64,000 nucleotides of DNA from a virus. Below the pieces are notes generated by a model that made no database searches, was not told the origin of the DNA, and saw only the letters and a list, made by a program, of their open reading frames with translations. Of this stretch, positions 1 to 29,135 are shown piece after piece. Within the stretch, counting starts at the first letter, position 1. Each line of letters begins with the position of its first letter. The DNA lies in IMG/VR virus record IMGVR_UViG_3300021963_000100, positions 7,719 to 71,718 of that record; one strand, 5' to 3'. A program made the translations under genes and the position numbers.

Positions 1-170
1 TTGTAGGTTCAGGGTTTAGCTTGGGTGCTACCTTAACTGAAAAAGACAATCCAATGACTACTGAAATCGTTTGGGTAGTTTGTTTTATGATTATTACCTT
101 TACGTTTATTCTAGTTATGTCTATTGGGTTGTTTCCTTACAATAAGGAAGAAACGAAGATAGTACTTTAA
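1..170 (+). CDS. partial small membrane protein (3' end), early cassette
   Basis: Open frame from window start: ...NPMTTEIVWVVCFMIITFTFILVMSIGLFPYNKEETKIVL*, hydrophobic stretch, TAA 168-170 followed by the cassette terminator. Confidence 0.7.
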   Translation, partial: VGSGFSLGATLTEKDNPMTTEIVWVVCFMIITFTFILVMSIGLFPYNKEETKIVL

Positions 171-175
171 TTAAA

Positions 176-200
176 GGGGGAGAAATCCCCCATTTTTTTT
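176..200 (+). terminator. intrinsic terminator (representative of 13 in the array)
   Basis: GGGGGA-GAAA-TCCCCC hairpin plus T8. Related hairpins start near 666, 1083, 1964, 2261, 2700, 3181, 3471, 4448, 4824, 5175, 5664, 5948. Confidence 0.9.
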
Positions 201-209
201 GCTCAAAAA

Positions 210-241
210 TTTGTAGGTTAAATTTATTATACTTACCTTTG
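210..241 (+). promoter_or_regulatory. Bacteroidota-type housekeeping promoter (-33 TTTG / -7 TAnnTTTG), representative
   Basis: TTTG 210-213, 20-nt spacer, TACCTTTG 234-241; matches the established Bacteroides/Flavobacterium consensus. Confidence 0.9.
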
Positions 242-262
242 TCCTATCAAAATCAAAAAACA

Positions 263-661
263 ATGGACACACTAATCAAAGAAAACAAAAGAATTTTAGC
301 GGGTTATCACTTACCCGAAGTTGAAGATGAAATGGAAGCACAAATGTATTGGGAAGACTTTGTGTATGAAGTTAAATCAATGATGAAGAAAATGCGTACA
401 AAGAAATTCTTTTGTTACGGGTTATCTTTAACTTGGAGAAATGTTGCAGGTTATACTAAATTTGAAACGGAGAGCGCAGAAACTTTAATCCGTAGACTTG
501 CACCGAATAGCGACTTTACAATGTTGTTTCATCCAACGGACAACAAAGGTATTATTGAAGTTGTTATATCGCACCACGACAAACCAACGGGAGAAACAAT
601 GTACCTTATGAGCCAATCAATGGCAGCGAAGCAAGGTATAATGGAGAAATACTTTAACTAA
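263..661 (+). CDS. hypothetical early protein
   Basis: ORF; start moved to ATG 263 because the track's TTG 239 lies inside the -7 promoter box. Confidence 0.85.
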   Translation: MDTLIKENKRILAGYHLPEVEDEMEAQMYWEDFVYEVKSMMKKMRTKKFFCYGLSLTWRNVAGYTKFETESAETLIRRLAPNSDFTMLFHPTDNKGIIEVVISHHDKPTGETMYLMSQSMAAKQGIMEKYFN

Positions 662-756
662 TAGAACGGGGAGAAATCCCCGTTTTTTTTGCTCAAAAAT
701 TTGCGAGTTAAATTTATTATAAGTACATTTGTATCATAATCAAAAAACAAATAAAA

Positions 757-1077
757 ATGGAAAACTTTAATCAGTTATGCGTTTGGGAAGGCACAGTTGT
801 TGGAGCAGACGAAGTAGAAAACTTTGAGAATTGGTTGCAATCCGAGTTCGGAGTTCGTGGAAAGTATTGTGAGGAAGTATTAACTTTACCAACGGAAGGA
901 GAACCAGGAACGGGAGGAAGAAACGACTTGTTATTTAGAGTACACGATGAAGATGTTATGAAGTTTGCAGTACCACGATTAATGGTTGGTATTAAATGGT
1001 GGGAAGATGTTTTAGGGAACGGGAACGGAGTTCTTTACACCGAAGAAATCTTAAACAAATATCCAAAAACTTGGTAA
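757..1077 (+). CDS. hypothetical early protein
   Basis: 106-aa ORF filling one promoter-terminator cassette. Confidence 0.85.
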   Translation: MENFNQLCVWEGTVVGADEVENFENWLQSEFGVRGKYCEEVLTLPTEGEPGTGGRNDLLFRVHDEDVMKFAVPRLMVGIKWWEDVLGNGNGVLYTEEILNKYPKTW

Positions 1078-1185
1078 TTAGAACGGGGAGAAATCCCCGT
1101 TTTTGTTGTTTAAAACTTTGTTGAAAACTTGTGGGTTAAATTTATTATATATACCTTTGCATCATAAAACAAAGACAAAAACAAA

Positions 1186-1389
1186 ATGAGAAACGAAAAA
1201 ACTTGGTACGAAGTATTTAAACGAAACGAAGACGAAAGCACCGAAACTATTTTTGCTGATGCTGACTTGGAGACTTGCGTTAAAGTGTATCGTAAGGAAA
1301 AAATTAAAGACCGCTCAGTTAAAATAGATAAGTGGTTAGATGCGTCTTATTTAGACTTTCCAATCCCTATTAAATCAATCCTAAATTAA
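1186..1389 (+). CDS. hypothetical early protein
   Basis: 67-aa ORF directly after the cassette leader. Confidence 0.8.
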   Translation: MRNEKTWYEVFKRNEDESTETIFADADLETCVKVYRKEKIKDRSVKIDKWLDASYLDFPIPIKSILN

Positions 1390-1568
1390 TGGACAAAGAA
1401 ACATTAATAATTAAACGGATATTACTCGAGGAACGATATAGAACCCTTTCGGATCTATGGGAGCCTAAAAGTAAACACCACACCCACTTAAATATATCAA
1501 AGAAAATGGATGATGTTATACGAGAGTTAGATGAGGTAAAAAAACTTATGGGAAAATTTGGAGGTTAA
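1389..1568 (+). CDS. small hypothetical protein (59 aa, not in ORF track)
   Basis: TAATG overlap with the upstream stop; MDKETLIIKRILLEERYRTLSDLWEPKSKHHTHLNISKKMDDVIRELDEVKKLMGKFGG*; stop lies inside the next promoter module. Confidence 0.6.
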   Translation: MDKETLIIKRILLEERYRTLSDLWEPKSKHHTHLNISKKMDDVIRELDEVKKLMGKFGG

Positions 1569-1608
1569 ATTTATTGTACTTATCTTTGTATCATAAAATC
1601 AAAAAACA

Positions 1609-1959
1609 ATGAAGGCTTTTAAAATTAATTCAGCAGAACGCAAGGTTGAGGAAATCGAAATCAACTCTTGGGAAGACATTGCACCAGCAATCGGAAACGA
1701 GTGTACAACATTTGCTTGTCCCGTAACATTCGAAAATGAGGACACAATCTATGTAGATGATGAAGGGTTGTATCATCCATTTGAAGGTGGCTTTATGATG
1801 GAAAATTGGAACTACCCTTGCGTTGGAAATGGTATCTTACAAGGTACAGATGATGAGGGGGAAAGCACCGAGCCATTAACCACAAAGGAAGAATTGGAAG
1901 CAATGATTATTTGGGTTGACAAGGTGAAGTGTTCAATTTGGGCATCACAATTTAATTAA
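1609..1959 (+). CDS. DUF3846-like protein
   Basis: IYVDDEGL...PCVGNGILQGTDDEGES pattern resembles DUF3846; cassette context. Confidence 0.6.
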   Translation: MKAFKINSAERKVEEIEINSWEDIAPAIGNECTTFACPVTFENEDTIYVDDEGLYHPFEGGFMMENWNYPCVGNGILQGTDDEGESTEPLTTKEELEAMIIWVDKVKCSIWASQFN

Positions 1960-2053
1960 CGGAACGGGGAGAAATCCCCGTTTTTTTTTGCAATAAAATT
2001 TGGTGGTTAAATAAATTATACATATCTTTGTACTATCAAAATCAAAACAAACA

Positions 2054-2257
2054 ATGGCAAAGAAAAAACAATTTGATGTAATCAGCCCCGATGGGTTTAG
2101 CATCCACCACAGCAACACCTACAACACCAAAGAAGAGGCAATGAACGCTTTCTTTGAGTGGAAGAAACGCTACGAGCAACAAGGGTATTATTCATCTAAT
2201 AGAGGTAGAATCCCTTTGGATGAGTTGGAGAATCATTGTAGAATCGTTGAGGTATAA
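2054..2257 (+). CDS. hypothetical early protein
   Basis: 67-aa ORF filling one cassette. Confidence 0.8.
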   Translation: MAKKKQFDVISPDGFSIHHSNTYNTKEEAMNAFFEWKKRYEQQGYYSSNRGRIPLDELENHCRIVEV

Positions 2258-2349
2258 TTAAAGGGGAACAAATGTTCCCTTTTTTTTTGTTAAAATTTGC
2301 GAGTTAAATTTATTACACTTACCTTTGTATCATAATCAAAACAAACAAA

Positions 2350-2694
2350 ATGAAAAAGTTATTTATTATTTCAGCAGTGCTATTAGCCACAACAAGTTTA
2401 AAAGCACAAACCGTAATTGGCGACACATTAAAGACCAATTCACAATGGGTTAAAACCAAAGCAGTTTTACCAAAAGATGTTAGCGATGTTATGACAATCG
2501 TTAGGAACAACGAGGAGAACACATTGGTAGTTGAATTCGCCAAACATTTAACACAAGATGAGTTGGAGTTGGTTAAAAACTATGTTCGTTTTTATTACGA
2601 TTGGGGTAACGAGCAAGGGGGTTATAATTGTAACGCACCAGATGTTTACAACCAAAAGAAAACTTGCAAACTGATATTCTATAAAAGGGGTTAA
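2350..2694 (+). CDS. exported hypothetical protein (Sec signal peptide)
   Basis: MKKLFIISAVLLATTSLKA-Q signal peptide. Confidence 0.8.
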   Translation: MKKLFIISAVLLATTSLKAQTVIGDTLKTNSQWVKTKAVLPKDVSDVMTIVRNNEENTLVVEFAKHLTQDELELVKNYVRFYYDWGNEQGGYNCNAPDVYNQKKTCKLIFYKRG

Positions 2695-2802
2695 AAGAGA
2701 GGGGAGAAATCCCCTTTTTTTTGTTAATAACTTTCGATCGAAAATTTGCGAGTTAAATTTATTATAAGTACATTTGTATCATAAATCAAAAAACAAAGTA
2801 TT

Positions 2803-3177
2803 ATGAACAATCCATTTCCAAGACCACAAGCTGGGGCTTACAAATCTTACTTAGTTGAGGCTCTTAACAAAATCGGTAGAACAACCGAAGCAAGTGAATT
2901 CGCAAACGGCAATATGAAACTTGCCATTGTATCAAGTATTACGGGTGGGGTTAGATTATTCCCCGAGTTGAATTCGGTGTGTGCTAATTCATTAAATGAG
3001 TTAGAGCCAAACGATACAATCCGTTATTACTTTTGGGGTTTATCAAACGGGCAGTTCGCAGTTGCATCAAGTAACGGAGCTTATGTTTATGACCCAACCG
3101 ACAAGAAAGCCGTTGAGTATGTGAAAGAGCAAGTTGAGAAAAGCGACAATGAAATCATTCAACCATATTTCAGTTAA
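2803..3177 (+). CDS. hypothetical early protein
   Basis: 124-aa ORF filling one cassette. Confidence 0.85.
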   Translation: MNNPFPRPQAGAYKSYLVEALNKIGRTTEASEFANGNMKLAIVSSITGGVRLFPELNSVCANSLNELEPNDTIRYYFWGLSNGQFAVASSNGAYVYDPTDKKAVEYVKEQVEKSDNEIIQPYFS

Positions 3178-3272
3178 TTAAAGGGGGAGAAATCCCCTTT
3201 TTTTTTGCAATAAAATTTGCACATTAAATTTATTATACTTACCTTTGTATCATAATCAAAAACAAATAAAGT

Positions 3273-3467
3273 ATGGCGACTTATTATGTAACAATCATGT
3301 CAATCGACCCCGATGACCACTATGGAAGAGAGCAAGGGGATGACCACCAAAAGTACGGGTTTGATGTTCAAGCGAACAACAAACGAGATGCCGAAGAAAA
3401 GGGTGCAGAAGAATTTAAAAGACGATACCCAGGTTTACCAATCTATTGGGTTAAGGCTGAAATTTAA
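3273..3467 (+). CDS. hypothetical early protein
   Basis: 64-aa ORF filling one cassette. Confidence 0.8.
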   Translation: MATYYVTIMSIDPDDHYGREQGDDHQKYGFDVQANNKRDAEEKGAEEFKRRYPGLPIYWVKAEI

Positions 3468-3552
3468 TTAAAGGGGGGGACAAAAAAGTCCCCTTTTTAT
3501 TTGCATATTAAATAAATTACACTTACCTTTGTACTATCAAAATCAAAAAACA

Positions 3553-3783
3553 ATGTATAAAGTAGAATCAAATCAGTACATCCCTTACAAACCAAAGAGT
3601 TTGCCAAGTGGAATGCCAGCTTGTAGCACTTACTATTATGTAACAAACGAGCAGGGTAAGGTAATAAGCCACAAGACCTTAAAACCTTATAGAGGTAAAG
3701 ATATGGCTAACTACAAATTTAATAGCCAAGAGGGTGCAGAAAGTTTTGCAAAAAAGTTGAATGAAAGTTTGGTAGTTAAATAA
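3553..3783 (+). CDS. hypothetical early protein
   Basis: Start moved to ATG 3553 (track TTG 3529 is in the -7 box); stop lies inside the next promoter. Confidence 0.75.
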   Translation: MYKVESNQYIPYKPKSLPSGMPACSTYYYVTNEQGKVISHKTLKPYRGKDMANYKFNSQEGAESFAKKLNESLVVK

Positions 3784-3825
3784 ATTATACTTACCTTTGT
3801 ATTCACAAATCAAAAAACAAACAAA

Positions 3826-4029
3826 ATGAAATCAACATTCTACTACATCACATTCATTGCATTCACTATCTTTGCATTTTGGGTTGCATTCACTTGGGAT
3901 ATCCCCGTTAACAATCAAATGGGTATGGCTTTTATGGGGGTTATGTGTTTCTCATTATTAGTTCTTTTAATCATTGAGGATATAAAGGAATTTGTTAAAA
4001 AGAGAAAAAATAAACCCCAAACATTTTGA
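3826..4029 (+). CDS. small two-helix membrane protein
   Basis: Two hydrophobic stretches and a basic C-terminal tail. Confidence 0.8.
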   Translation: MKSTFYYITFIAFTIFAFWVAFTWDIPVNNQMGMAFMGVMCFSLLVLLIIEDIKEFVKKRKNKPQTF

Positions 4030-4059
4030 TATTAAATAAAATATTCATATATTTGTAAT

Positions 4060-4419
4060 ATGAAAAAAATATTGACCTTAATTGCATTCGCTTTGATTGT
4101 ATTCAGTGCGAGTGCTAAAGAAACGGAACCGACATTGGTATTAGAATACTACTATACAAATAAAGCGGATAGCGTTTATATTAGTAATAGCATTAAGTCG
4201 GATGAAAGTTTGTGTTGCTCATTTGTGGTTGTATTAAAACCTTCAAAAACAAACGGGAGTGAAACGCAAATTAAACATAGGGAAACGGGGATTGTTCTTG
4301 GAACAATTTACGGAACACCAACAAAAGAGTTCTTGGTTTTTGTTCAGCAAAATTATTTAACCGAGCAATATATAAATGATATTGTACCGAGAATAGTTGC
4401 GACAAAACCAAGTAATTAA
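4060..4419 (+). CDS. exported hypothetical protein, apparently leaderless mRNA
   Basis: MKKILTLIAFALIVFSASA signal peptide; ATG only 4 nt after the -7 box. Confidence 0.8.
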   Translation: MKKILTLIAFALIVFSASAKETEPTLVLEYYYTNKADSVYISNSIKSDESLCCSFVVVLKPSKTNGSETQIKHRETGIVLGTIYGTPTKEFLVFVQQNYLTEQYINDIVPRIVATKPSN

Positions 4420-4564
4420 AGAGTGTTTTTTTGATTAGATGAGGAATGGGGGTTAAACGAAAGTTTGCCCCTTTTCTTTTTAATTAAAAAAAAATTACAT
4501 TAAAATTTGCAAGTTAAATTTATTACACTTACCTTTGTATCATAAATCAAAAAACAAAAACAAA

Positions 4565-4819
4565 ATGAAAAAACAAGTTAACAAATTAGAAAAGAACTTT
4601 GATAAATTTTTTGCGGTGTATTATATCTTATTCGGTGTAATGCTTTTAACAACTTTAGTAAATGTAGCAAATGATTGTTTCATTTTCAAAGTTACTGAAT
4701 TGGTTATGGGGGTTACTTTTATGGTAACAATGTTTGCCCCTGTATTGCTTTATGGTTTATTATATTGGGTATATGAAAACCAAAAGAAACAAATACAAAC
4801 TGGCAACATAGCAGGTTAA
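4565..4819 (+). CDS. small two-helix membrane protein
   Basis: Start moved to ATG 4565; two hydrophobic segments. Confidence 0.75.
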   Translation: MKKQVNKLEKNFDKFFAVYYILFGVMLLTTLVNVANDCFIFKVTELVMGVTFMVTMFAPVLLYGLLYWVYENQKKQIQTGNIAG

Positions 4820-4922
4820 TTAAAGGGGGCGAAAGCCCCTTTTTTATTTAATCAATTTCGATCGAAAATTTGTAGGTTAAATTTATTATACTTACCTTTG
4901 TCCTATCAAAATCAAAAAAACA

Positions 4923-5168
4923 ATGGCAACAAAAACATTCAAGTCCGAGTATCATTCAGGGGGTATTATTAAAGTAACCACCGATGAAAAGAAAAAGAAA
5001 GTAACCTTTGTAGTTTGCGACCACGAGTATTCATTTGATACTAATGATAGCAGAGCAGAAACACAAATGGATAATTTCTTATTTGAGAATACAAGTTCAT
5101 ATTATGCAGAGCAAATACTAAATTGGGTTAAGAGTAAAATAAAAATTGAAACACCTTCATTTTGGTAA
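4923..5168 (+). CDS. hypothetical early protein
   Basis: 81-aa ORF filling one cassette. Confidence 0.8.
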   Translation: MATKTFKSEYHSGGIIKVTTDEKKKKVTFVVCDHEYSFDTNDSRAETQMDNFLFENTSSYYAEQILNWVKSKIKIETPSFW

Positions 5169-5264
5169 TTATTAAAGGGGACAAAAAAGTCCCCTTTTTT
5201 TATATTAAAATTTGCATATTAAATATATTACATATATCTTTGTATCATCAAATCAGAAAACACT

Positions 5265-5660
5265 ATGAAAAAATCCCTAATCGTAATGGTTGCAATGTTG
5301 GGAGTAACATTGACCACAAAAGCACAAGTAATTGTAAGCGGTAAATTTGTAGACGCTAAAGCGACCTTTAGAGTTTACGAGATGCAAGAGGATAGTACCT
5401 TTGCTGAAATATCCGCAAATCTAACTAACAATGCAAAGCCAAAGCACCGCTATGCTATTGAATTGGAAGATAACAAAGTTTATATTGTTAATTTTACCAA
5501 CGAAGACAATAAAACTAAATCAATGAAGTTTATATCTTATCAGTCGGGAGATATTGACTTAGACGTAAACTTTAAGACAACCAAAGATGCTTATGTTACA
5601 ATTAAAAATAACAAGGCATACGTCAAACGAACAAACGAAAAACTTTTAGCAGTAAATTAA
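5265..5660 (+). CDS. exported beta-rich hypothetical protein
   Basis: MKKSLIVMVAMLGVTLTTKA-Q signal peptide. Confidence 0.8.
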   Translation: MKKSLIVMVAMLGVTLTTKAQVIVSGKFVDAKATFRVYEMQEDSTFAEISANLTNNAKPKHRYAIELEDNKVYIVNFTNEDNKTKSMKFISYQSGDIDLDVNFKTTKDAYVTIKNNKAYVKRTNEKLLAVN

Positions 5661-5755
5661 TTAAAGGGGAGAAATCCCCTTTTTTTTATGCTCAAATTTG
5701 TGAGTTAAATTTATTATATATACCTTTACATTATAAATCAAAAAACATATTTGTT

Positions 5756-5944
5756 ATGAAAAAATTAGTTCTTTTAGTAATGGTTTCAGTGATGGCGATT
5801 GGAACAAGTTTTGCAAACGATGGAGTTAAGAAGTTGAAAAAGCACAAGAGAGTTAAATATCATCAGTGCGATGCTTATAAGACACACTACGCACCGATTA
5901 AGCCCGAAAGACACAAACACCACACTTGCGATGCTTATAATTAA
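5756..5944 (+). CDS. small exported basic peptide with duplicated HxCDAY motif
   Basis: Signal peptide MKKLVLLVMVSVMAIGTSFA; HQCDAY and HTCDAY. Confidence 0.75.
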   Translation: MKKLVLLVMVSVMAIGTSFANDGVKKLKKHKRVKYHQCDAYKTHYAPIKPERHKHHTCDAYN

Positions 5945-6029
5945 TTAAAGGGGACGAAAGTCCCTTTTTTATTTAATTAATTTTCGATCGAAATTTGCAG
6001 GTTAAATTTATTATACTTACCTTTACATT

Positions 6030-6103
6030 GTCAATGAGAAATCGAGACGGGCGGGGGTAAGACCACGAAGTAAATCAGAAGTACGTTGCCCTATATTTTT
6101 TTT
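6030..6103 (+). ncRNA. candidate small structured RNA occupying an early cassette
   Basis: Full promoter module (5994-6025) followed by about 70 GC-richer nt with stems GTC/GAC and GGGCGG/TTGCCC and then a T-run; no A-rich leader and only an 8-codon ORF. Confidence 0.5.
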
Positions 6104-6204
6104 ATGTGGATAACTTGTTAATAACTATCATAAAAATAATTACCCCAAAATTTTGCCATTAAAGGACAATACCATACCTTTGTACTATCAAAATCAAAAA
6201 ACAT

Positions 6205-6732
6205 ATGTACAACAAAAAATCACAAATCGTAGCAAGTCTTATTAAAGACGGAGGTTCAGCAAAATTTGCACAAGTATTAGCAGAGGTTGAACAAAAAATG
6301 TTAAAGACGGGTAATCCTTTGCGTAATGCAGTTATTACCAAGTTAGTGGACTACAATATGCTATTGAACGCTAACTATCAAAATATGGTTAATAACGCCC
6401 TAATTAGAGAGGGTAAAGACGCTAACTTTGTAGCCAAAGAAAATTGGTTCACACCCGTAAATGACGGCTTTAATGGTTCAGTAGTAGCAAAGAAGTCCGA
6501 CCTTACTTGCGAGTACTTAAAGTTCTCTTGTAATAACGCTAAAACGCTTAATTACTTTGTGGACGGGGTTGAGGCTACACCCGAACAAATGGAGGTTATT
6601 AAGCAGTATAAACAAAGAAGTAACCGACCACTTAATCAAGGGTTAACCGAAGATAATGAGGTTATTATCCGTACTATTAAAATGGAGGGTATTAAGAAAA
6701 TCAAGTGTGGCGAGAACCTTATCTTCGGATAA
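6205..6732 (+). CDS. hypothetical early protein
   Basis: 175-aa ORF after the last promoter module. Confidence 0.85.
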   Translation: MYNKKSQIVASLIKDGGSAKFAQVLAEVEQKMLKTGNPLRNAVITKLVDYNMLLNANYQNMVNNALIREGKDANFVAKENWFTPVNDGFNGSVVAKKSDLTCEYLKFSCNNAKTLNYFVDGVEATPEQMEVIKQYKQRSNRPLNQGLTEDNEVIIRTIKMEGIKKIKCGENLIFG

Positions 6733-6764
6733 GGTTTTTAATACACAAGTATTTTAACAGAAAG

Positions 6765-6809
6765 TTATCCACACTAACAATGTGGGTAACTTTTTTCATA
6801 TGTGGATAA
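6765..6809. promoter_or_regulatory. DnaA-box cluster
   Basis: TTATCCACA 6765-6773, TGTGGGTAA 6781-6789 (1 mismatch), TGTGGATAA 6801-6809; another perfect box at 6105-6113. Confidence 0.6.
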
Positions 6810-6812
6810 CTA

Positions 6813-6882
6813 CCCCCCGTATGGGGCCTCCCCTCCCGTATCCCCCTCCCTGGTCCCCCCGTTATATACCCCAATAGGGGGG
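6813..6882 (-). other. C-tract cluster (potential G-quadruplex on minus strand)
   Basis: Seven C3-C6 runs in 60 bp within an AT-rich genome. Confidence 0.6.
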
Positions 6883-6908
6883 TCAAACATCTAAATGAAT
6901 TGTTTCTT

Positions 6909-7010
6909 AAAAAAATTTCTGGGAGGTCCTTTTTTCCAAATATTGACCCCTTTCAGGATCCAAACGGATTTTCAAAAAAATTTCTGGGAGTATTTTTTTT
7001 CCAAAATATC
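6909..7010. repeat. imperfect direct repeat, about 35 bp, two copies
   Basis: AAAAAAATTTCTGGGAG...TTTTTTCCAAA at about 6910-6940 and 6974-7005. Confidence 0.75.
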
Positions 7011-7140
7011 GGCTTTTTAAACGATAACCCAAATTATCGGTTAATTACACGATAAGGCCAGAACCTTATAATTTGTCAAATTATGTATGGTAATTCGGAA
7101 ATTATCCGATTAACCATGGTTTATTTTACATAAAACGAGG

Positions 7141-7148
7141 TATTTATA
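7141..7148 (+). promoter_or_regulatory. putative late promoter TATTTAT(A), representative of about 20
   Basis: Same motif 5-35 nt upstream of ATG on the coding strand. Plus: 7141, 11831, 19002, 20857, 25751, 29790, 31425, 41526, 53149. Minus: 8345, 10515, 11787, 20804, 22616, 23306, 24591, 25718, 31393, 37642, 38415. Confidence 0.75.
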
Positions 7149-7162
7149 ATAAAATTACCACT

Positions 7163-7693
7163 ATGTTTAAGTATATTTCCGAGATTATCTCCAAGATTTC
7201 AATGAAGCAGCGTTTATCTGCGCTTGCCATCGTTTTATTTGCCATTGTAACCATTTCCGTGGCTCCTAAGATCGTTTCTTCCTTTACACAGGATAATGAG
7301 GAGCTGGAACTAAAAGTCGAGCGTCAGAGGCTCCAAATCGAGCAATTATCCAATCAGGTGGATACACTCAACAGTAAAATACTATCTGAGCAATCTAGTT
7401 GCACAAATAGATTTGTTGCCAGGGAAAAAGAAGTGCTTGATTTATTATTATCTCTGGAAACCGAAGCCAGAAATTCAAATGGTAAAATTTTATCTACCAC
7501 AACAACTATGGAGAGAAAAGAAAGACCAAGATATGTGGAAGAATCAAATGATCCTAATGAGCCACGTGTTGCCAGAATGGAAATGCCATCACCACCAACC
7601 GAAAAAACGGTTATTGTTAAAACTGATAATAGTAAACTGCTAAAGATGATCTCCAACGTTAAAAGCAACGTACAGAGTCATATAGGTAATTAA
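7163..7693 (+). CDS. membrane-anchored coiled-coil protein (possibly spanin-like)
   Basis: N-terminal TM helix then heptad-rich segment; late motif upstream; function is inference. Confidence 0.7.
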   Translation: MFKYISEIISKISMKQRLSALAIVLFAIVTISVAPKIVSSFTQDNEELELKVERQRLQIEQLSNQVDTLNSKILSEQSSCTNRFVAREKEVLDLLLSLETEARNSNGKILSTTTTMERKERPRYVEESNDPNEPRVARMEMPSPPTEKTVIVKTDNSKLLKMISNVKSNVQSHIGN

Positions 7694-7717
7694 TGTCCGA
7701 TATATCATACAAATATG

Positions 7718-8338
7718 TTATTCTTTTGTCTTACCCCACTTATCTCCTTTACCTGGAGTTCCACATGATGCGGGTGTGGGTCTACATGATGGATATTTAG
7801 CTCTGTCTTCACCTTTCTGTCTTCCACAGGCTTTGCATTTCTTTTTACCATCAGTTTTTCTGCATGTATTACAATCAACCCAACCTTTGCTTCCACCACC
7901 ACCTCTTCTTGAGAACCAACCGTGCAATCCGCTTTTCTTCTCTTTGGTGTAATCGGTTTTTTTGGCTTCATCCATACCTTCAGCTTCAGAATCAATATGT
8001 GCATCTATCCATGCTTGTATTTCATGAACGTCTGGCGCATAATCTTTTCCCTTTCTTCTGGTTATGGCATCGTGAGCTTTATAGATTAGATCCATAATAT
8101 CCTCAGGAGCTTCATTGATATCTTCTTCCTTTAGACCTTTCCAAATCTTTCCTCTTCTACATTGAACAATGGCACCAGACCTGTATGCGGATGGCTTGTC
8201 GTATTTTCGTCTTGCAATTCTAAGACAACGATCAGCTTTCTTTTCACCCTCATTAATGGCATCAAATGATTCGATAACCAAATCATCGTTAATCTTTACC
8301 ATTATCTCAACAAGTCTATTTAAGTCTTTTTGTTCCAT
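7718..8338 (-). CDS. hypothetical late protein with basic Cys-rich modules
   Basis: GWVDCNTC...CKACGR...YPSCRP; modules separated by INE/MDE. Confidence 0.8.
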   Translation of the reverse strand: MEQKDLNRLVEIMVKINDDLVIESFDAINEGEKKADRCLRIARRKYDKPSAYRSGAIVQCRRGKIWKGLKEEDINEAPEDIMDLIYKAHDAITRRKGKDYAPDVHEIQAWIDAHIDSEAEGMDEAKKTDYTKEKKSGLHGWFSRRGGGGSKGWVDCNTCRKTDGKKKCKACGRQKGEDRAKYPSCRPTPASCGTPGKGDKWGKTKE

Positions 8339-8361
8339 GTTATATATAAATAGTTTTGGTG

Positions 8362-8565
8362 TTAGTTAAATTCGTATCTTGGTTCCGTTACACCAACAAT
8401 ATATTTTTTGATTGTATTTGCTGGCACATTTAAAAAAGAACCATTTGTTAACTTAAATGCAATATAAACTTCAGCGAATGGTGTTAGGTATGTTTGCACT
8501 GGGGTCATCTCTTCCCCATCAGTATTTGCAAACTTTACATTTTCAATTTTGATCGAGTCTTGCAT
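8362..8565 (-). CDS. hypothetical protein
   Basis: 67-aa ORF starting 4 nt after the upstream stop. Confidence 0.7.
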   Translation of the reverse strand: MQDSIKIENVKFANTDGEEMTPVQTYLTPFAEVYIAFKLTNGSFLNVPANTIKKYIVGVTEPRYEFN

Positions 8566-8569
8566 TTCA

Positions 8570-9175
8570 TTAAACTATGTCAGTTGATTCTAATAAAGTG
8601 TAACTAAATTTGTTTCCGTGTATCTTTGATGCTTTTTTGCATATCTTCATGAACTCATCGAAATCTTTCACTCTCTTAAATACTTGACAACCTTCGCTCC
8701 AGTTTTCAACCCAAGTTGAATCTTGGCCAGCTTTGTGGATATTGATTCCAAACATACCAGTATCGGTAACCGATTCGCTAAACATTAAATCTCTGTTCGC
8801 ATCTCTATATACTGTTACATTACCATTTCTCTGACATAATGCATCATATTTGCCCTGGTGTTTATCAACTGACCAAACGCTTCTATATTGTCCTGGTACC
8901 AATCTGGCAACACCTTTGTTATTGTGAAATTCCATAACACCCTTTTTACCAGGATCCGTGGTTGCATTCCAGCAATAAAATTGTTCAACCCCCGCTTCAT
9001 CCTTAAATGTAATGGTTAAATGATCATCAAATACATTGGTAACCTTATCCGCAACAGATGGGGCGTTATTTCTCACACCAACGATATTAACATCATATCC
9101 TTTATTGGCGGCATCATCAAACCATTTATAGCCTTTGGCTAACACGGTGTCTTTAATTTGTTCTTTTGTATACAT
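8570..9175 (-). CDS. L,D-transpeptidase (YkuD)-like peptidoglycan enzyme, candidate endolysin
   Basis: INIH-x12-SEGCQV resembles the YkuD His...SxGC catalytic motif. Confidence 0.65.
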   Translation of the reverse strand: MYTKEQIKDTVLAKGYKWFDDAANKGYDVNIVGVRNNAPSVADKVTNVFDDHLTITFKDEAGVEQFYCWNATTDPGKKGVMEFHNNKGVARLVPGQYRSVWSVDKHQGKYDALCQRNGNVTVYRDANRDLMFSESVTDTGMFGINIHKAGQDSTWVENWSEGCQVFKRVKDFDEFMKICKKASKIHGNKFSYTLLESTDIV

Positions 9176-10032
9176 TATTTTTTGTTTTTAAAATAGTGAA
9201 TCTGTTGCAATCTTTCTTTAGCCCCAGCTTCTGAATTATAAGTTCCTAGGTTTCCACCCTTTTCAGAGTATACCCTCCATTTATCATCTCCAATCTTGCG
9301 GATGTATTCATCCAATGGTTGTTTGTTTGGATCGTTATCACATCCGCATTTATGACAGATGTACATATCATCCCCACCTTCACTCTTTTTCCAACTCCAA
9401 CCACAGTCATCACAGATAACCTTTGTTTTGGTCACCATCTCATCAACCGATGCAACTTCGTTATTTAATTTTGTAATATTTGTTATTGCACCATCACCCC
9501 AGATGCAACCAGATGCCACATCCCATCCATAATACCACATATGCTCATACCTGGCTTTGTAAATATAAGGTGCAATTTCTATGCCCGCATAATCTTTGGC
9601 GACCAATGACCAATCGATTGATTTATATCTGCTGGCCATCATTGCTGAATAATTTCTTATGGTTCTGTCCTCTGGACGCATTGCGTTGTATTTCTCTTCA
9701 AACGCAACCAATTCTTTATAGTTGGTGATTTTTAGGATTCTATCCTCGTTGATATCGATTTTAAAAACGTTGTCAGCCTCCCAGTCGGGCATTTCAGATC
9801 TAACCCACCTTATCCAACTATCGCCAATACCATACCACAACCCTTTTGGTTTGAATGATATTTCCTGATTTGGTGTTGGTTTGAATTCGATGCTGTCTTT
9901 ATCGGACATGATTAATCTGGCGCTGGAATAATCGGATAGAATTTTATTGTAAGTTTCATCTGAAACCTCGCCCATAACATTCATCATGGTTTTCATTTTT
10001 GCGATTTCTTCCGTTAGTGTCCTCTTTTTCAT
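9175..10032 (-). CDS. multi-module late protein (N-terminal tag, KPKGLWY domain, Zn ribbon, C-terminal basic module)
   Basis: LTEEIAKMKTMM tag; CDDC...CHKC ribbon. Confidence 0.8.
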   Translation of the reverse strand: MKKRTLTEEIAKMKTMMNVMGEVSDETYNKILSDYSSARLIMSDKDSIEFKPTPNQEISFKPKGLWYGIGDSWIRWVRSEMPDWEADNVFKIDINEDRILKITNYKELVAFEEKYNAMRPEDRTIRNYSAMMASRYKSIDWSLVAKDYAGIEIAPYIYKARYEHMWYYGWDVASGCIWGDGAITNITKLNNEVASVDEMVTKTKVICDDCGWSWKKSEGGDDMYICHKCGCDNDPNKQPLDEYIRKIGDDKWRVYSEKGGNLGTYNSEAGAKERLQQIHYFKNKK

Positions 10033-10071
10033 AAATCACTTATGCTGTCCGAACTGGTGCTGCGCACCAGA

Positions 10072-10509
10072 TTATAGTAAACGTTTCATTTGGTTTAGGT
10101 GCTCTTGCAATTTGGCATCTTTTTTAGCAACCTCATTATAATCTTTGGCGAATTGAATATTGGTTTTGATTGTATTCTCCTCATTCTCCAATTCCTCCAA
10201 AGTAAAATATTTGTATTCGGTATGTTCTTTGTTTAACTTAATGTTTTCATCGTCAAATGTATTTGTGTAGAATACATTCAATTCAACATTACCATAACCA
10301 TATTTTTTTAAATTGGTAAAGTTTTGCAAGAAAACCCCAGCTTCCTCTTTAACCTCTCTGGTCAATGCTTCTTCTGGTGTTTCACCCGCATCAACGCCAC
10401 CGCCAATCATAGCCCATTTTCCTGGGTTTGATTCGTCAGTCTCACTTCTCTTGAAAAGCAAAATCTTGTTGTCCTTAACAACCATTAATAGGGAAACTTG
10501 TTTTTTCAT
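10072..10509 (-). CDS. Nudix hydrolase
   Basis: Nudix box GGVDAGETPEEALTREVKEEAGV; C-terminal LQEHLNQMKRLL tag. Confidence 0.92.
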   Translation of the reverse strand: MKKQVSLLMVVKDNKILLFKRSETDESNPGKWAMIGGGVDAGETPEEALTREVKEEAGVFLQNFTNLKKYGYGNVELNVFYTNTFDDENIKLNKEHTEYKYFTLEELENEENTIKTNIQFAKDYNEVAKKDAKLQEHLNQMKRLL

Positions 10510-10536
10510 GTTTTTATAAATATATGGGAATTTGGT

Positions 10537-11559
10537 TTAAGGTATAATTTGTTCCCCTTTGGAGATTTTTTCCATATATTCGGATTCGGTTAAAACAGCT
10601 CTTACGTCCCAATGGTCAGCCATCATGGTTTCTTTTGCATGATCTGATCTTCTTTTGGCACCATACGCACATTTTCTAACCAGATAATCGTATGATAGGT
10701 GTTTGTAATGTAATACGTATAATTCGGTGTCAGAATTGTAAACCACGTTACCAGTTGGGTAAGATTGGTGGCTACCATATGAATATCTCATATTAACCTC
10801 TTTTGGGTTGAATAGTACGTATTTATCTAAACCGCTACTCACCTCACCATTTTTTATAATATCTGGTAAATAAACTCCTGGTTGGAATTTTGGGAATTCA
10901 GTTGAGTACATTTCGTAACCATATGTAACTGGTATTGTAATCCCGTTTTTCTTATACTCAATAATTTTTTCTCTAATATTCGGGTGATATAAAAATTCAT
11001 CAGCATCAACAATGATAAACCAGTCGTACTCGTCTTTGTATTTCTTCCAGATTTCATTTCTGGATTCCATCAAATTGTATTCATTGTACTCTTTATGATC
11101 CTCAATGATTACCTCAACTTTACTACCAAAAGTTTTAAGGTACTCCACGGAACCGTCATCACTGTTTCCATCAGAAAAAATAATCTTATCAACACCAACA
11201 AAATTGAAATAGTAATCGATAAAGAATGGTAAGATATCAATCTCATTTTTGATTGGACAAACCACGCATATTTTTTGTCTTGGTATTGATGTTGTTTTTT
11301 TGAAAATAGCACTCCTAAGAATCGAAGTACCCCAAGAGTCCCAAACCTCAACTTTAATATTATCAGCGTCAACTATTATATCATTACCAAAAAAGTATTC
11401 ATTACCTTTTTCCAACAATATAACATAGTCCATATAAGTTAAATGCTCGTACTCATACCCATTATACTTATGAACCTTTAATTTTATCTCAATAGGGAAT
11501 CCAGATTGTAGAAAAATCCTACCAATACTGGTGTCATACTTAATATCAACGTTAACCAT
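10537..11559 (-). CDS. glycosyltransferase family 2-like (GT-A fold)
   Basis: PIKNE...DGNSDDGS...WFIIVDADEFL (DxD); TACTTTTG -7 box upstream on the minus strand. Confidence 0.85.
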   Translation of the reverse strand: MVNVDIKYDTSIGRIFLQSGFPIEIKLKVHKYNGYEYEHLTYMDYVILLEKGNEYFFGNDIIVDADNIKVEVWDSWGTSILRSAIFKKTTSIPRQKICVVCPIKNEIDILPFFIDYYFNFVGVDKIIFSDGNSDDGSVEYLKTFGSKVEVIIEDHKEYNEYNLMESRNEIWKKYKDEYDWFIIVDADEFLYHPNIREKIIEYKKNGITIPVTYGYEMYSTEFPKFQPGVYLPDIIKNGEVSSGLDKYVLFNPKEVNMRYSYGSHQSYPTGNVVYNSDTELYVLHYKHLSYDYLVRKCAYGAKRRSDHAKETMMADHWDVRAVLTESEYMEKISKGEQIIP

Positions 11560-11608
11560 AATTTTTTTTTACAAAAGTACCTAAAGATTTTTATTTGTAA
11601 ATAAACTA

Positions 11609-11770
11609 TTAGTTTTTTTTGATTTGGTGATAAGCCTTTTCAACTCTTTCGTGATGAGTCAATTTTGGGTGTGTAAATGCTAATTCACGGATTAGATTGT
11701 TTAGTTCGCTAATAAAGCCTTCCGTATGGGCTTCATAGTAAATTTCTTCTACGATCTCTTCATTAGTCAT
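11609..11770 (-). CDS. small hypothetical protein (53 aa, not in track)
   Basis: MTNEEIVEEIYYEAHTEGFISELNNLIRELAFTHPKLTHHERVEKAYHQIKKN*; late motif at 11787-11793. Confidence 0.7.
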   Translation of the reverse strand: MTNEEIVEEIYYEAHTEGFISELNNLIRELAFTHPKLTHHERVEKAYHQIKKN

Positions 11771-11854
11771 GGTAAGTGGTTTTCAGATAAATATATACGT
11801 TTTAAATTAAATTTTTAAGCAAAATTAAACTATTTATGTGAAAGTAATATTCCC

Positions 11855-12901
11855 ATGGAAAAAAATATATTAAACGAACAAATTTTGAGGATGCGAGAAA
11901 TTATGGGCATCAACGAAAGTGCGAAGGATCAATTTAAAAAAGATTTGCAAAACGATCCAGATTATAAAGAGTTTAAAGATAAAGCAATCGTACCTGGTAA
12001 AAACGGTGGAATTGATTATAGTTATGGTGTTGTTAACCCAGACAATGATCCGTTTATTAATAAAACCAGTCAAGATGACGATACCGATGAATTAGAAGAG
12101 GGTACGCTTTATAATATTAGCGGAGTTAGCTATGATGAAATGGCTAAAGCCGAAATAGGTTCAATTGTTGGTGATTTGAATAAAATTGCGCCATATGTTT
12201 TAGAAATTGGAGATAAAGTCAAAATGAGAGCTGATGGTGCTGTTGAGGTTTCGGATGAGGGTAGGATTGTTAGAATTTTTAAAAGCGCTGATAGTTTCTT
12301 AACTCAAATTGGATATAAAGCGATTTCAGTAAACGAGGATTTTGATGACACACTAACACATCATATTGAGGAGTCCGCTTATGACCAATCACATGGTTCA
12401 CCATATGATCGTGGACATGCTGATGCTTATTATGGTAGATCTAGAAATCCACATAAATGGCCTGAGGGTACTGGTCATGGCGAAAAAGTAACTGACTTAA
12501 CACCAGAAGAAATTGAGGCTTATAACGCTGGTTATGATGATTGTGACGATAGAAAGGATTGGGGTATGGATGAAAATACAAAAATGGAAACTGGCTCTGT
12601 TGGGATTATATCTAGAAGAGGTAAGATGATGCCAGCTTATTTTCAAAACTTTGGTCTTTCTGTTGCTGGTGATTTAGTTGAGTTTGATAACAATGGTAAA
12701 TTATTAAAAAAGGGTGGTGGTTATCCTGAAGGTGGTTTTAAAAAATATGAGACTGTTGATGAGTTAGAGAAAGACATCTGTGCTAATTACAATGAAATGT
12801 TAGAGATGTTTAAAACCATGGCACCTACAGAAGTTGAGCTTGGTGAAAATGAGAGTTCATATCAAATAATAAAAAATGCGGTTAACTGCGATTTATATTA
12901 A
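11855..12901 (+). CDS. acidic multi-module late protein with N-terminal tag
   Basis: ILNEQILRMREIMGI; HGSPYDRGHADAYYGR module. Confidence 0.85.
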   Translation: MEKNILNEQILRMREIMGINESAKDQFKKDLQNDPDYKEFKDKAIVPGKNGGIDYSYGVVNPDNDPFINKTSQDDDTDELEEGTLYNISGVSYDEMAKAEIGSIVGDLNKIAPYVLEIGDKVKMRADGAVEVSDEGRIVRIFKSADSFLTQIGYKAISVNEDFDDTLTHHIEESAYDQSHGSPYDRGHADAYYGRSRNPHKWPEGTGHGEKVTDLTPEEIEAYNAGYDDCDDRKDWGMDENTKMETGSVGIISRRGKMMPAYFQNFGLSVAGDLVEFDNNGKLLKKGGGYPEGGFKKYETVDELEKDICANYNEMLEMFKTMAPTEVELGENESSYQIIKNAVNCDLY

Positions 12902-12906
12902 ATAAA

Positions 12907-13305
12907 ATGACTAAAGAAACTAAAGTTATAGTTAGAGCTAATGGTGGTACTTGGAAAGTAACCGCTGATCATGCAAATTATACCACCATATCTGGTAGTG
13001 ACAAATTTGTTTGTCAAGGATCGGGGGATATCGATGTTGTGGGTGAATTTTATAACGATAGTATTGTTTTGCAATTTTTGGTTAACAATCCATGGATTGG
13101 TTCACCTTGGGCTGCTGTTGGACAATATTTGGGTGATATTGGTGGTTGGAAAAATGGTAGAACGTCTTTAAGTGAAGGTGAAGAACACATATTTGTACAA
13201 ACAATATACACGGATGATGATCATTGGGATTTTAAAACTAGAGTGGTAAGGTTAGCTGATACAGACACAAAAAACTTTGAAATCTGGCCAGGTTGGTGGG
13301 AGTAA
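12907..13305 (+). CDS. hypothetical protein
   Basis: 132-aa beta-rich ORF in operon. Confidence 0.8.
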   Translation: MTKETKVIVRANGGTWKVTADHANYTTISGSDKFVCQGSGDIDVVGEFYNDSIVLQFLVNNPWIGSPWAAVGQYLGDIGGWKNGRTSLSEGEEHIFVQTIYTDDDHWDFKTRVVRLADTDTKNFEIWPGWWE

Positions 13306-13315
13306 ATTAAATAAA

Positions 13316-13834
13316 ATGAAAAAAATATCATTAAACGAAGAGCTAAATAGAATGCTAGAAATTATGGGTGTTGAACCAAAAGATGGTCAGCAGTTGGATT
13401 TGTTTGCTGGTACGGATGATGCGCTACAAACAAATGATGACGAAACCTATAAGGGTAAGCGGGTAATGGTATATTATAATTTACACAAACACACGTTTTC
13501 AATACAATATAAAGGTTTAGTGGTAGCGCATGCTAACTACGTTAAATTAGGTAATGTTGAATTTAGGGTTAGGCAAGGCGGTCTTGAAAAAGTTCGTGAC
13601 GAAAAAAAGAAAAATGTGCATGCTTTTGTTATTGGTGATTTGATTGACTACGTTGAATACCCATCAACTGATATACCAACGCCAACAAGTTCAAAAATAA
13701 TAACATACGATCCTTATAAATACAGTTCATTTGTCTATAAAGATAATGAAAATCCTGTGTATAACGCCAATGAGGTAGAGATGATTAATCAACCAGGTGG
13801 TAAAATTTTCCAAATCCATGAAATTAAAAACTAA
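13316..13834 (+). CDS. tagged phage protein (VYYNLHK...KNVHAFVIG...YDPY)
   Basis: Start moved to ATG 13316; SLNEELNRMLEIMGV tag. Confidence 0.8.
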   Translation: MKKISLNEELNRMLEIMGVEPKDGQQLDLFAGTDDALQTNDDETYKGKRVMVYYNLHKHTFSIQYKGLVVAHANYVKLGNVEFRVRQGGLEKVRDEKKKNVHAFVIGDLIDYVEYPSTDIPTPTSSKIITYDPYKYSSFVYKDNENPVYNANEVEMINQPGGKIFQIHEIKN

Positions 13835-27746: not shown

Positions 27747-29135
27747 TTAAAACTCATACAGTAAAAAATATAACTCTTCTTTCGGTCTAGTTACTGCAAC
27801 GTAGTGTATGTTTCTAGCTTCAACATCCACATCCCCATCATCTTTAATAAAAGAAAATTTATTAACATCAGCAAATTCATCATCCATTAATAATTCTGGA
27901 TCTATGGAATTAACAACGACACACCTCGGGAATTCACGACCTTTACTTTTATGTATACTAGTCACAAAAACATCTGAATTTTTATTACCCTCAATAAAAT
28001 CAATTAACCCGAATGTGTTTTTATGGTAAGGTGCGACAGACTCGAGTCTCTTTTTTAGTGATGGGTTTATCTTACCATCTCTAACGTTTTTAATATCTTG
28101 TTCTGTAATATAATTAAAATAACGCATTTTAATTTTTTCTTTTAAACAACGTTTTTCTATTTCTTTAATGACGTTATTTGTTCTGGCTAATATCGCTAAA
28201 GGTTTACCATCCTCCATCATATCGTATAGGGTGTCCTCATCAATTAATTTATCATGGACATAACCATCGTCTTCATTAAATGGTATGGCCTTTAAGTCGC
28301 TATATCTATTGGCATTTTCAACAATTTTTTTATTGGATCTAAAGTTCTTAGTCAATGTCATTTCAATTGTTTTATGACTACCCATTAAAAGATTCTCAAT
28401 CGCTTCACAATTGGCACCAGAAAACCCATATATTGATTGATTTTTATCACCGATAAGATGGTATTGTTTAGCCTTTATCGTTAACAAAATTTTCATTTGT
28501 AGGGTTGATGTGTCTTGGTACTCGTCAACAAAAATATAATCATATGTGTTTTCAAAAAATTGTTTGTACTTGGGGTTTCTACTGAATTTTTCAGTGTCTA
28601 TTAACATATCTGAGAAATCTCGGCTTTTAGTTTCTTTTGTGAAAGCCATATATTCATCATAAAACTGTGGTTTTGGTACTTTTAACCCATCAGCATTTTG
28701 TAGTTTGTAAGCTGAGAAATTTGATGATATCATTGCACCCTCCTCGTAAAATCTATCAACATTAGCAGCGTATTGCTGTTTAATCTTCATTGGGTCTTTA
28801 ACATGTGGTTTATATTTGTCTTTATACCAATTAGTGAACTCATAAAAAGTAACAATAGGTTTAAATAAACCCATTTTTCCTAATAGGCTACTGGTAAAAC
28901 TATGTATTGTTGTTATCTTAACATCGTGTTTGATTCTGGATCTTAATTCATTTACCGCATCATTGGTGAAGCTAAAGAATATAATTCTGGATGGATCAAC
29001 ACCATCTTCAATCATTTTATTTAATCTACCAACAGTGGAATGTGTCTTACCAGAACCAGCTGTTGCTGATAGTATAATTGACTCATTACCAGTGTAATTA
29101 ATGAATTTTAGTTGTTCATCTGTGTACTTATTCAT
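27747..29135 (-). CDS. UvrD/Rep/PcrA-family SF1 helicase (compact)
   Basis: ATAGSGKT, VDEYQD, GDKNQSIYGF, NFRS, SIHKSKGREF, YVAVTR. Confidence 0.95.
   Translation of the reverse strand: MNKYTDEQLKFINYTGNESIILSATAGSGKTHSTVGRLNKMIEDGVDPSRIIFFSFTNDAVNELRSRIKHDVKITTIHSFTSSLLGKMGLFKPIVTFYEFTNWYKDKYKPHVKDPMKIKQQYAANVDRFYEEGAMISSNFSAYKLQNADGLKVPKPQFYDEYMAFTKETKSRDFSDMLIDTEKFSRNPKYKQFFENTYDYIFVDEYQDTSTLQMKILLTIKAKQYHLIGDKNQSIYGFSGANCEAIENLLMGSHKTIEMTLTKNFRSNKKIVENANRYSDLKAIPFNEDDGYVHDKLIDEDTLYDMMEDGKPLAILARTNNVIKEIEKRCLKEKIKMRYFNYITEQDIKNVRDGKINPSLKKRLESVAPYHKNTFGLIDFIEGNKNSDVFVTSIHKSKGREFPRCVVVNSIDPELLMDDEFADVNKFSFIKDDGDVDVEARNIHYVAVTRPKEELYFLLYEF

Follow-up and report, generated by a model that had tools for sequence, protein, structure and literature searches.

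A bounded stretch purged of short palindromes coincides with a putative early gene array in an uncultured jumbo phage

The DNA analyzed here is a stretch of 64,000 nucleotides (the window) that corresponds to bases 7719-71718 of a 71,718-base viral contig, IMG/VR record IMGVR_UViG_3300021963_000100, for which CheckV gives a completeness of 24%. At its left end lies a block of small genes from which GATC and many other short palindromic words have been purged, and which stops at a sharp limit; positions below are those of the window unless the contig is named. The stretch is present in part in aquatic metagenomes (marine, estuary and freshwater), with 20 rows from 19 studies and 22 runs listed, a survey that records presence only. 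The genes of the block all lie on the plus strand, 34 of them encode at least 55 amino acids, and each forms a single-gene cassette in which a GC hairpin with a T-run, a conserved element of ~45 nucleotides, an A-rich leader without a Shine-Dalgarno sequence and an ATG follow one another. Terminator-like sites (Table 1) number 34 in window 1-12000, as against 7.6 +/- 2.7 in shuffles, and the promoter-like element occurs in 28 forward copies in contig 1-13870, with no copy of its extended type in the other 57 kb. The -33 TTTG box of this element and its ~20-nucleotide spacing to the -7 box are, we presume, a feature of Bacteroidota promoters, and the Bacteroidota sigma-A pattern (TAnnTTTG, an upstream TTTG and a leader without a Shine-Dalgarno sequence) fits the 28 copies of the block. 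Passages of PMC9723704 give TAnnTTTG as the flavobacterial sigma-A -7 consensus and describe flavobacteria as also being without Shine-Dalgarno sequences. Judged by their sequence, the elements resemble strong promoters of the kind that the host polymerase itself reads, which commonly mark the early genes of phages. A scan for standard sigma-70 promoters, which is uninformative for a Bacteroidota-type host, returned 52 sites against 48.7 expected. The contig holds a single reverse-oriented promoter element, at contig 7369, past the second copy of a 175-amino-acid gene that is described below.

GATC occurs four times in window 1-6900 (at 1452, 2736, 4860 and 5986) and 24 times in 6901-13800, where the first site is at 6957; every position given in a preliminary description of the window, which counted four sites and then more than 20, is correct, and an even-split binomial on the 4 of 28 sites gives p = 9e-5. 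Three of the four early sites sit, as had also been noted there, in one palindrome, TTTCGATCGAAA, at 2732, 4856 and 5982. Two further variants of this motif lie upstream of the window, and half of the GATC sites in the block (5/10) fall inside it. The same description had taken the feature to span 1-6900 and to concern GATC as a single word, and on both counts it was too narrow. The left limit at position 1 is an artefact of where the window starts: the GATC-poor stretch runs back to contig base 1 and so covers at least 14.6 kb, with 10 GATC in 14,618 bases, while the rest of the contig (57,100 bases) holds 141. The block therefore has 10 of 151 sites at a length share of 0.204 (p = 2e-6).

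As for the word, GATC is merely one of about ten 4-bp palindromes that are purged in the block. When observed counts of 4-mers are divided by a maximum-order Markov expectation, the ratios in the block are 0.23 for GATC, 0.24 for ACGT, 0.26 for AGCT, 0.10 for CATG, 0.25 for CTAG, 0.10 for GCGC, 0.49 for GGCC and 0.57 for TCGA, and palindromes account for nine of the 11 lowest-scoring words among the 136 strand-merged 4-mers. GTAC, TGCA, AATT, ATAT, TATA and TTAA are unpurged (ratios 0.85-1.11). In the next 35 kb the words purged from the block are close to 1, except GATC (0.67) and CATG (0.54), and eight 4-bp palindromes summed reach 13.99 per kb there as against 4.45 per kb in the block. Interrupted 5-bp palindromes are low in the block as well (ACNGT 0.24, CTNAG 0.29, GANTC 0.27 and GGNCC 0.30), as are two AT-rich 6-mers (TTTAAA, 8 observed versus 25.4 expected; AATATT, 4 versus 11.1). 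When the block is pooled with its counterpart in a relative, low values are likewise seen for the asymmetric words CCATC, GAGAC, GCAGC and CTCAG, which we take to be Type IIS recognition sites. The count of unrelated words purged in the block comes to about twenty. The non-palindromic ACAG/CTGT is strongly depleted in both blocks too (pooled observed/expected 0.40 versus 0.83 elsewhere), mainly on the coding strand as ACAG.

This regional purge comes in addition to a separate, genome-wide layer of avoidance of the classical form, to which the absence of CCGG, CGCG and CGNCG belongs. These three words, together with CGTACG, CTGCAG and CTTAAG, are absent from the whole 71.7-kb contig, whereas a 299-kb relative (G001, introduced below) has zero CCGG yet 114 CGCG and 89 CGNCG; GGWCC is nearly missing from both genomes (observed/expected 0.03). 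Because CGCG and CGNCG are absent here and present in G001, the genome-wide avoided set differs between close lineages, which is what changing host enzymes would produce.

A step of this kind could in principle be unrelated to restriction and reflect codon or amino-acid usage, repeats, recent foreign origin or chance, and there are features of the block on which such an explanation can draw: about a quarter of it is repeated promoter and terminator sequence, and it has a gene style of its own, with small genes and many secreted or acidic products. We permuted synonymous codons 1000 times within the 34 block genes (11,010 nucleotides) in such a way that neither the proteins nor the codon usage of the block changed. 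The depletion persists in coding sequence under this shuffle, for GATC as it does under the Markov correction, with 2 GATC observed versus 22.3 expected (z -5.4), ACGT 6 versus 31.5, AGCT 7 versus 29.3, CATG 3 versus 27.0, CTAG 4 versus 15.9 and TCGA 12 versus 32.3; for each of these six words, none of the 1000 shuffles was as low as the observed count. There was no depletion of GTAC, TGCA, AATT or ATAT. In 36 control genes beyond the boundary (30,159 nucleotides, 300 shuffles), GATC stands at 78 observed versus 85.9 expected and strong depletion is limited to CCGG (0 versus 24.5) and CGCG (0 versus 11.4). Thr before GG is encoded by ACG in 6 of 8 cases, though ACG makes up only 20 of 208 Thr codons; Pro before GA is CCC in 10 of 12; and among the GAN codons (Asp, Glu) that precede C, GAT is used in just 2 of 45. 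The remark in the preliminary description on odd codon junctions holds up. Base composition is alike on the two sides (GC content 0.343 in the block versus 0.327 beyond the boundary), and gene amplification is not the explanation, because there is one paralogous pair only among the 34 block proteins.

The right limit of the block, which the preliminary description had put as a sharp boundary near 6.9 kb, is indeed abrupt. A two-rate change-point fit to seven palindromes (Table 1) has a support interval of 6622-7112 and a 2*delta-lnL of 135.7, with palindrome density rising across the step from about 2.5 to about 12 per kb.

Relatives were found at seven viral loci. Searches against phages with megablast (window 1-7000) and with tblastn (a 1064-amino-acid protein) gave no match. 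One of the seven loci lies in G001, a genome of 298,833 bases that is rated 100% complete. It is listed as linear, but its bases 1-126 recur at 298,689-298,814 and are followed there by 19 adapter-like bases; the genome therefore closes into a circle, and the numbering of its bases has no fixed origin. Its promoter matches, 44 in all, are confined to 186,339-215,780 and make up two divergent arms: 31 are on the minus strand and reach to 204,485, and the other 13 are on the plus strand and begin at 204,533. Of these arms, the first (18.7 kb) is purged throughout, with counts for the seven palindromes of 4, 8, 2, 6, 0 and 6 per 3 kb, as against mostly 17-47 per 3 kb in the low-GC remainder of the genome; the only other comparably low bins (9-18 per 3 kb) belong to a high-GC stretch at 141-153 kb. 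The ratios in the first arm are 0.06 for ACGT, 0.26 for AGCT, 0.19 for CATG, 0 for CTAG, 0.17 for GATC, 0 for GCGC, 0.16 for GGCC, 0.12 for TCGA, 0.12 for GANTC and 0.09 for GGNCC. Just past the second arm, at G001:216,200-217,800, about 24 GATC are packed into roughly 1.6 kb, the densest such cluster of the genome.

The step after the 175-amino-acid gene is found at the same place in all five records that span both sides (5/5), although three of these (L011-L013) have near-identical profiles, so that the five amount to about three independent lineages. G001 has homologues for 26 of the 34 block proteins, all of which map to the first arm, with identities of 42-86% and a shuffled gene order, and because the purge is retained there despite this divergence and rearrangement, we conclude that it is kept by ongoing selection. 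The retention of the pattern at such gene identity, like the selective loss of palindromes among the 4-mers, also counts against an origin of the step in usage, repeats, foreign descent or chance, which with the shuffles, the single paralogous pair and the similar GC content is largely refuted and has, in our judgement, very little chance of being right. A distant relative (L015/G003), whose 175-amino-acid protein is 52% identical, has no promoter match and a weak step only.

The step falls in a boundary element that is itself conserved. Window 6733-7160 is non-coding, and conservation among relatives reaches to about window 7000, taking in a hairpin, a C-rich tract and two direct repeats (Table 1). 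Besides the inverted pair of DnaA-box-like words that form the hairpin arms, other perfect DnaA-box words, TTATCCACA, lie at 6105-6113 and 6801-6809; the contig as a whole has seven perfect DnaA boxes versus 0.59 expected, six of the seven inside the block. G-quadruplex motifs number two in the 71.7-kb contig and five in G001, including the counterpart at the boundary. Folded as single-stranded DNA, the boundary is unremarkable aside from the hairpin (z -1.85). A second copy of the 175-amino-acid gene together with its DnaA-box hairpin occurs inside the block (contig 6634-7249, with the gene at contig 6665-7186), at 75% identity.

Nineteen of the 34 block proteins were scanned against Pfam and 20 against PHROGs, and no family of known function was matched, only two domains of unknown function and PHROGs of unknown function. 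The 175-amino-acid protein found no more than leads in the ESM Atlas (score <=0.83). Some of the early products are probably exported, and we note signal-peptide-like N-termini (for example MKK...AQ) in the proteins encoded at 2350-2694, 4060-4419, 5265-5660 and 5756-5944; such signal peptides are presumably of the type typical of Bacteroidota. None of the 20 proteins compared with PHROGs matched a PHROG of known function such as A1, A2 or dmp of T5, a scan that included no direct comparison with the A1 and A2 sequences.

These scans also bear on the possibility that the words avoided in the block are targets not of host enzymes but of one or more early nucleases that the phage itself makes to destroy host DNA. 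A T5 preprint argues, in passages of 10.1101/866236, that first-step DNA survives the degradation of host DNA since it lacks nuclease sites, an idea put forward for A1 as a hypothesis, and here the purge is limited to DNA that would be in the cell while the early genes act. About twenty unrelated words, however, go far beyond one nuclease, and the scans of block proteins revealed no nuclease domain. The bulk of the genome would moreover still have to be absent or protected, so that an own nuclease would add to staged entry rather than replace it. We regard avoidance of the phage's own nuclease as quite unlikely.

Weak PHROG matches link the first genes beyond the boundary, at window 7163-7693 and 8570-9175, to a spanin (E 4.9e-4) and an endolysin-related family (E 2.1e-11, with an unnamed family stronger), and if these matches are real the earliest genes would abut lysis genes. 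Further downstream, two giant genes at window 41556-53114 (3852 amino acids) and 53186-63964 (3592 amino acids) consist nearly entirely of collagen triple-helix repeats, the second ending in a Peptidase_S74 (endosialidase chaperone) domain; their products are probably huge fibres. These genes account for a jump in GC content to about 0.46, for 559 GTAC in 22 kb and for regularly spaced GATC. A scan of window 1-9000 with Rfam returned no family, and a tRNA scan of the window found none. The remaining features are collected in Table 1.

Table 1. Features of the block, its boundary element and the region beyond (window positions)
Feature	Position	Strand	Remarks
Window part of palindrome-purged early cassette array	1..6732	+	extends upstream to contig base 1
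Promoter-like element TTTG-N4-GTTAAATTTATTAYACTTAYCTTTG	209..6193 (first 209-252, last 6150-6193)	+	17 window copies, about 20-30 nucleotides before ATG
GC hairpin + T-run terminators (examples)	176-191, 663-686, 1080-1103, 1961-1984, 3180-3201, 4822-4843, 5947-5968	+	close each cassette
Palindrome TTTCGATCGAAA with surviving GATC	2732..2743, 4856-4867, 5982-5993	.	copy at 2732 lies directly upstream of a -33 box
Last gene of block, 175 amino acids	6205..6732	+	no known family; 80-81% identical in close relatives
Hairpin GTTATCCACA-N8-TGTGGGTAAC, then T-run	6764..6796	+	arms are an inverted pair of DnaA-box-like 9-mers, perfect in relatives
Maximum-likelihood step in palindrome density	6792..6822	.	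two-rate change-point fit, seven palindromes
Conserved C-rich tract	6813..6870	-	canonical G-quadruplex motif on minus strand at 6830-6850
Two direct repeats TTCTTAAAAAAATTTCTGGGAG..TTTTTTCCAAA	6904-6940, 6969-7005	+	kept in relatives
NUDIX hydrolase	10072-10509
GT2 glycosyltransferase	10537-11559
GAF-PAS histidine-kinase-like protein	13797-15578
UvrD-type helicase	27747-29135
ClpB/ClpC-like double AAA+ ATPase	39019-41484

The purge is broad, ends sharply, coincides with the promoter array and is conserved. That restriction has driven selection on a bounded early module is a well-supported reading, and we hold it to be very probable. The preliminary description had read the region as DNA that enters the cell first and unprotected, its products shielding the remainder; apart from the limits and the single word already corrected, what stands of this is a restriction-like, bounded depletion that coincides with genes whose anatomy is that of host-transcribed early genes. 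If selection acts on the sites of one segment only, that segment must be exposed at a time when the rest is not, and staged or slow polar entry is the known route to such a state. The best mechanism here, to which we would give somewhat better than even chances, is that the block owes its exposure to entering first. The block would then be the immediate-early module, about 30 single-gene cassettes, of a phage with a genome of roughly 299 kb and a host from the Bacteroidota, and host RNA polymerase would read each cassette from a near-consensus host promoter. An aquatic Bacteroidota host is also what several weaker pointers suggest, namely a terminase related to that of a Flavobacterium phage (below), the signal peptides and the occurrence in aquatic metagenomes. 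As the one part of the genome that is naked in the cell before the phage neutralises host nucleases, the block would have been purged by selection of the short words cut by Type II and Type IIS restriction enzymes. In a staged or slow polar delivery in the style of T5 or T7, it would go in first and its genes would be expressed, and the remaining roughly 280 kb, with thousands of such sites, would follow only afterwards. The boundary element, with its hairpin, G-quadruplex tract and direct repeats, would mark the place where the first stage halts or else the point at which the block physically ends, and products of the block may shield what comes after it.

Several observations weigh against this mechanism, most of them concerning the genome ends. 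The large terminase of G001 matches, among solved terminases, only gp17 of T4 and RB49 (E 8.5e-25); its nearest cultured relative is from a Flavobacterium phage (30% identity), followed by T4-like cyanophages (26-30%). T4-type enzymes package by headful, with permuted ends. Headful packaging leaves no fixed first-injected region, according to passages of PMC12455610. The match shows kinship of the enzyme and is not proof of the packaging mode. The position of the block in G001 is uninformative on termini, because that record closes on itself, and the start of the present contig is probably an assembly break, ~1.4 kb short of an arm junction of the G001 type. Contig ends were also considered as a proxy for genome ends in the 16 contig records that hold the C tract (this contig, eight distinct viral records, one further viral record and six metagenome records, some of which may be the same assemblies). 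Near the boundary such ends are over-frequent, yet they are scattered: one falls within the C tract, others lie 85, 169 and 374 nucleotides away and the rest farther off, and the 16 records share no nucleotide as an end. The second promoter arm of G001 has patchy depletion only, which a simple model does not predict. At the boundary, the DnaA-box pair could equally be the plain terminator hairpin of the last gene, and in G001 perfect DnaA boxes are weakly enriched (8 versus 4.5 expected, two of them at the boundary).

A role of the block products in shielding meets points of the same kind. None of the block proteins scanned matched an anti-restriction family. The most acidic of them, a protein of 213 amino acids with a net charge of -37, is encoded upstream of the window at contig 2570-3211 (L031:2570-3211) and has 793 database relatives and no Pfam or NCBIfam match. 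Its AlphaFold model has a predicted local distance difference test (pLDDT) score of 88.4; Foldseek against the PDB gave a best E of 2.3e-3 and nothing at E <= 0.001, and a wide VIA structure search reached a best Z of 5.1 and no known fold. With these values no claim can be made that the protein is an anti-restriction DNA mimic of the Ocr or ArdA fold.

Part of the conflict over genome ends would disappear in a variant that reconciles first entry with such an enzyme, in which a headful series starts from a pac site and entry halts at the boundary element. A series started at pac, combined with a halt, would leave the purge sharply cut off on one flank and patchy, fading out, on the other, as in G001.

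In the main rival, the whole genome enters at once and the bulk is shielded by co-injected coating proteins, a compartment or base modification, while the block is left bare for host RNA polymerase and would alone have to be free of restriction sites. Entry at once would fit a terminase that is T4-like and possibly headful, as well as the circular assembly; the purge tracks the promoter array rather than a demonstrated end, and GT2 glycosyltransferase and NUDIX genes lie just past the boundary, though nothing links them to DNA. Base modification, however, has left no obvious sign in G001, where a search found no match to three DNA methyltransferase families or TGT, no hydroxymethylase-type enzyme was detected, and ThyA scores as an ordinary thymidylate synthase (NCBIfam). 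A modification added during replication would cover the block too. We know, furthermore, of no mechanism that shields 280 kb and spares one stretch of 15-20 kb with a limit sharp to about 100 bases. We consider entry at once with a shielded bulk improbable, if the most serious of the alternatives to first entry of the block.

First entry has a precedent in T5, where the segment lies at the leading physical end within a long terminal direct repeat and its genes must be expressed before the remainder can enter. Only sites in the first-step segment make T5-like phages sensitive to Type I and Type II systems, according to passages of PMC10644984, which also describe the T5 pre-early genes as two inversely oriented units. 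The border of the T5 step is described, in parts of 10.1101/866236 and PMC10644984, as long and non-coding, with direct and inverted repeats and DnaA boxes. The present block resembles this arrangement in being a site-poor segment of small early genes read by the host polymerase, as its promoters suggest, in a genome that is otherwise site-bearing; in having a border that is non-coding and carries repeats, inverted ones among them, and DnaA boxes; and, in G001, in its two divergent promoter arms, which recall the two inversely oriented units. It differs in scale, the genome being about 299 kb versus 122 kb and the block 15-20 kb versus about 10 kb, and the phage and the phylum of its host are unrelated to those of T5. 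There are two to four DnaA-box words here as against eight ordered pairs in the T5 border as described in those sources, more words are purged than they describe for T5, and the terminase matches only T4-type gp17 among solved structures.

T7 carries co-oriented strong host promoters at its leading end and a terminator that closes its early region; the putative promoters of the block are co-oriented, and a hairpin with a T-run stands at the boundary. Passages of PMC12455610 report that the sensitivity of T7-like phages depends on the first-injected region alone, restriction acting as a sub-genomic filter, and that the leading region is highly variable and thought to carry anti-defence genes. 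Site avoidance on a sub-genomic scale is common to the T7-like Autographiviridae and the present phage. Those podoviruses of roughly 40 kb, with fixed ends, avoid Type I motifs, whereas the words purged here are Type II-like palindromes and the phage is a jumbo phage; every gene here, moreover, has its own terminator, an arrangement ill-suited to long-distance pulling driven by polymerase. A third comparison is offered by the Bacillus phage SPO1, in whose terminal redundancy a host-takeover module of about two dozen small genes with strong early promoters for host sigma-A is set apart from the rest and resembles the block. SPO1 DNA carries hydroxymethyluracil, and to our knowledge no purge of sites has been reported for its module.

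The principle is known from T5 and relatives of T7, and what is new is its occurrence in a jumbo phage, in another host phylum and beside a T4-type terminase, with a much broader purge and a border reminiscent of T5. We found no account in the literature of a regional palindrome purge in a jumbo phage, which is no proof that there is none. It is conceivable, although on balance we would not expect it, that a ~300-kb jumbo phage of aquatic Bacteroidota, equipped with a T4-type terminase, sends its genome into the cell in two stages and pauses at an element of DnaA-box hairpin and G-quadruplex that evolved independently of the stop signal of T5.

Regional avoidance has been shown experimentally for T5-like and T7-like phages of Proteobacteria, and here it appears as a clean sequence signature in an uncultured jumbo phage. 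If first entry of the block is true, staged entry would be more widespread than the model cases suggest and may coexist with a T4-type packaging enzyme. The roughly 30 small proteins of the block would form a candidate list for host-takeover and anti-defence functions, and the list of purged words would be a readout of the restriction specificities that the lineage has met in nature. Any collection of genomes can be searched for the signature, and if delivery does occur in two stages, a sliding-window search for palindrome purges would be a detector, from sequence alone, of leading regions and hence of anti-defence islands in uncultured phages.

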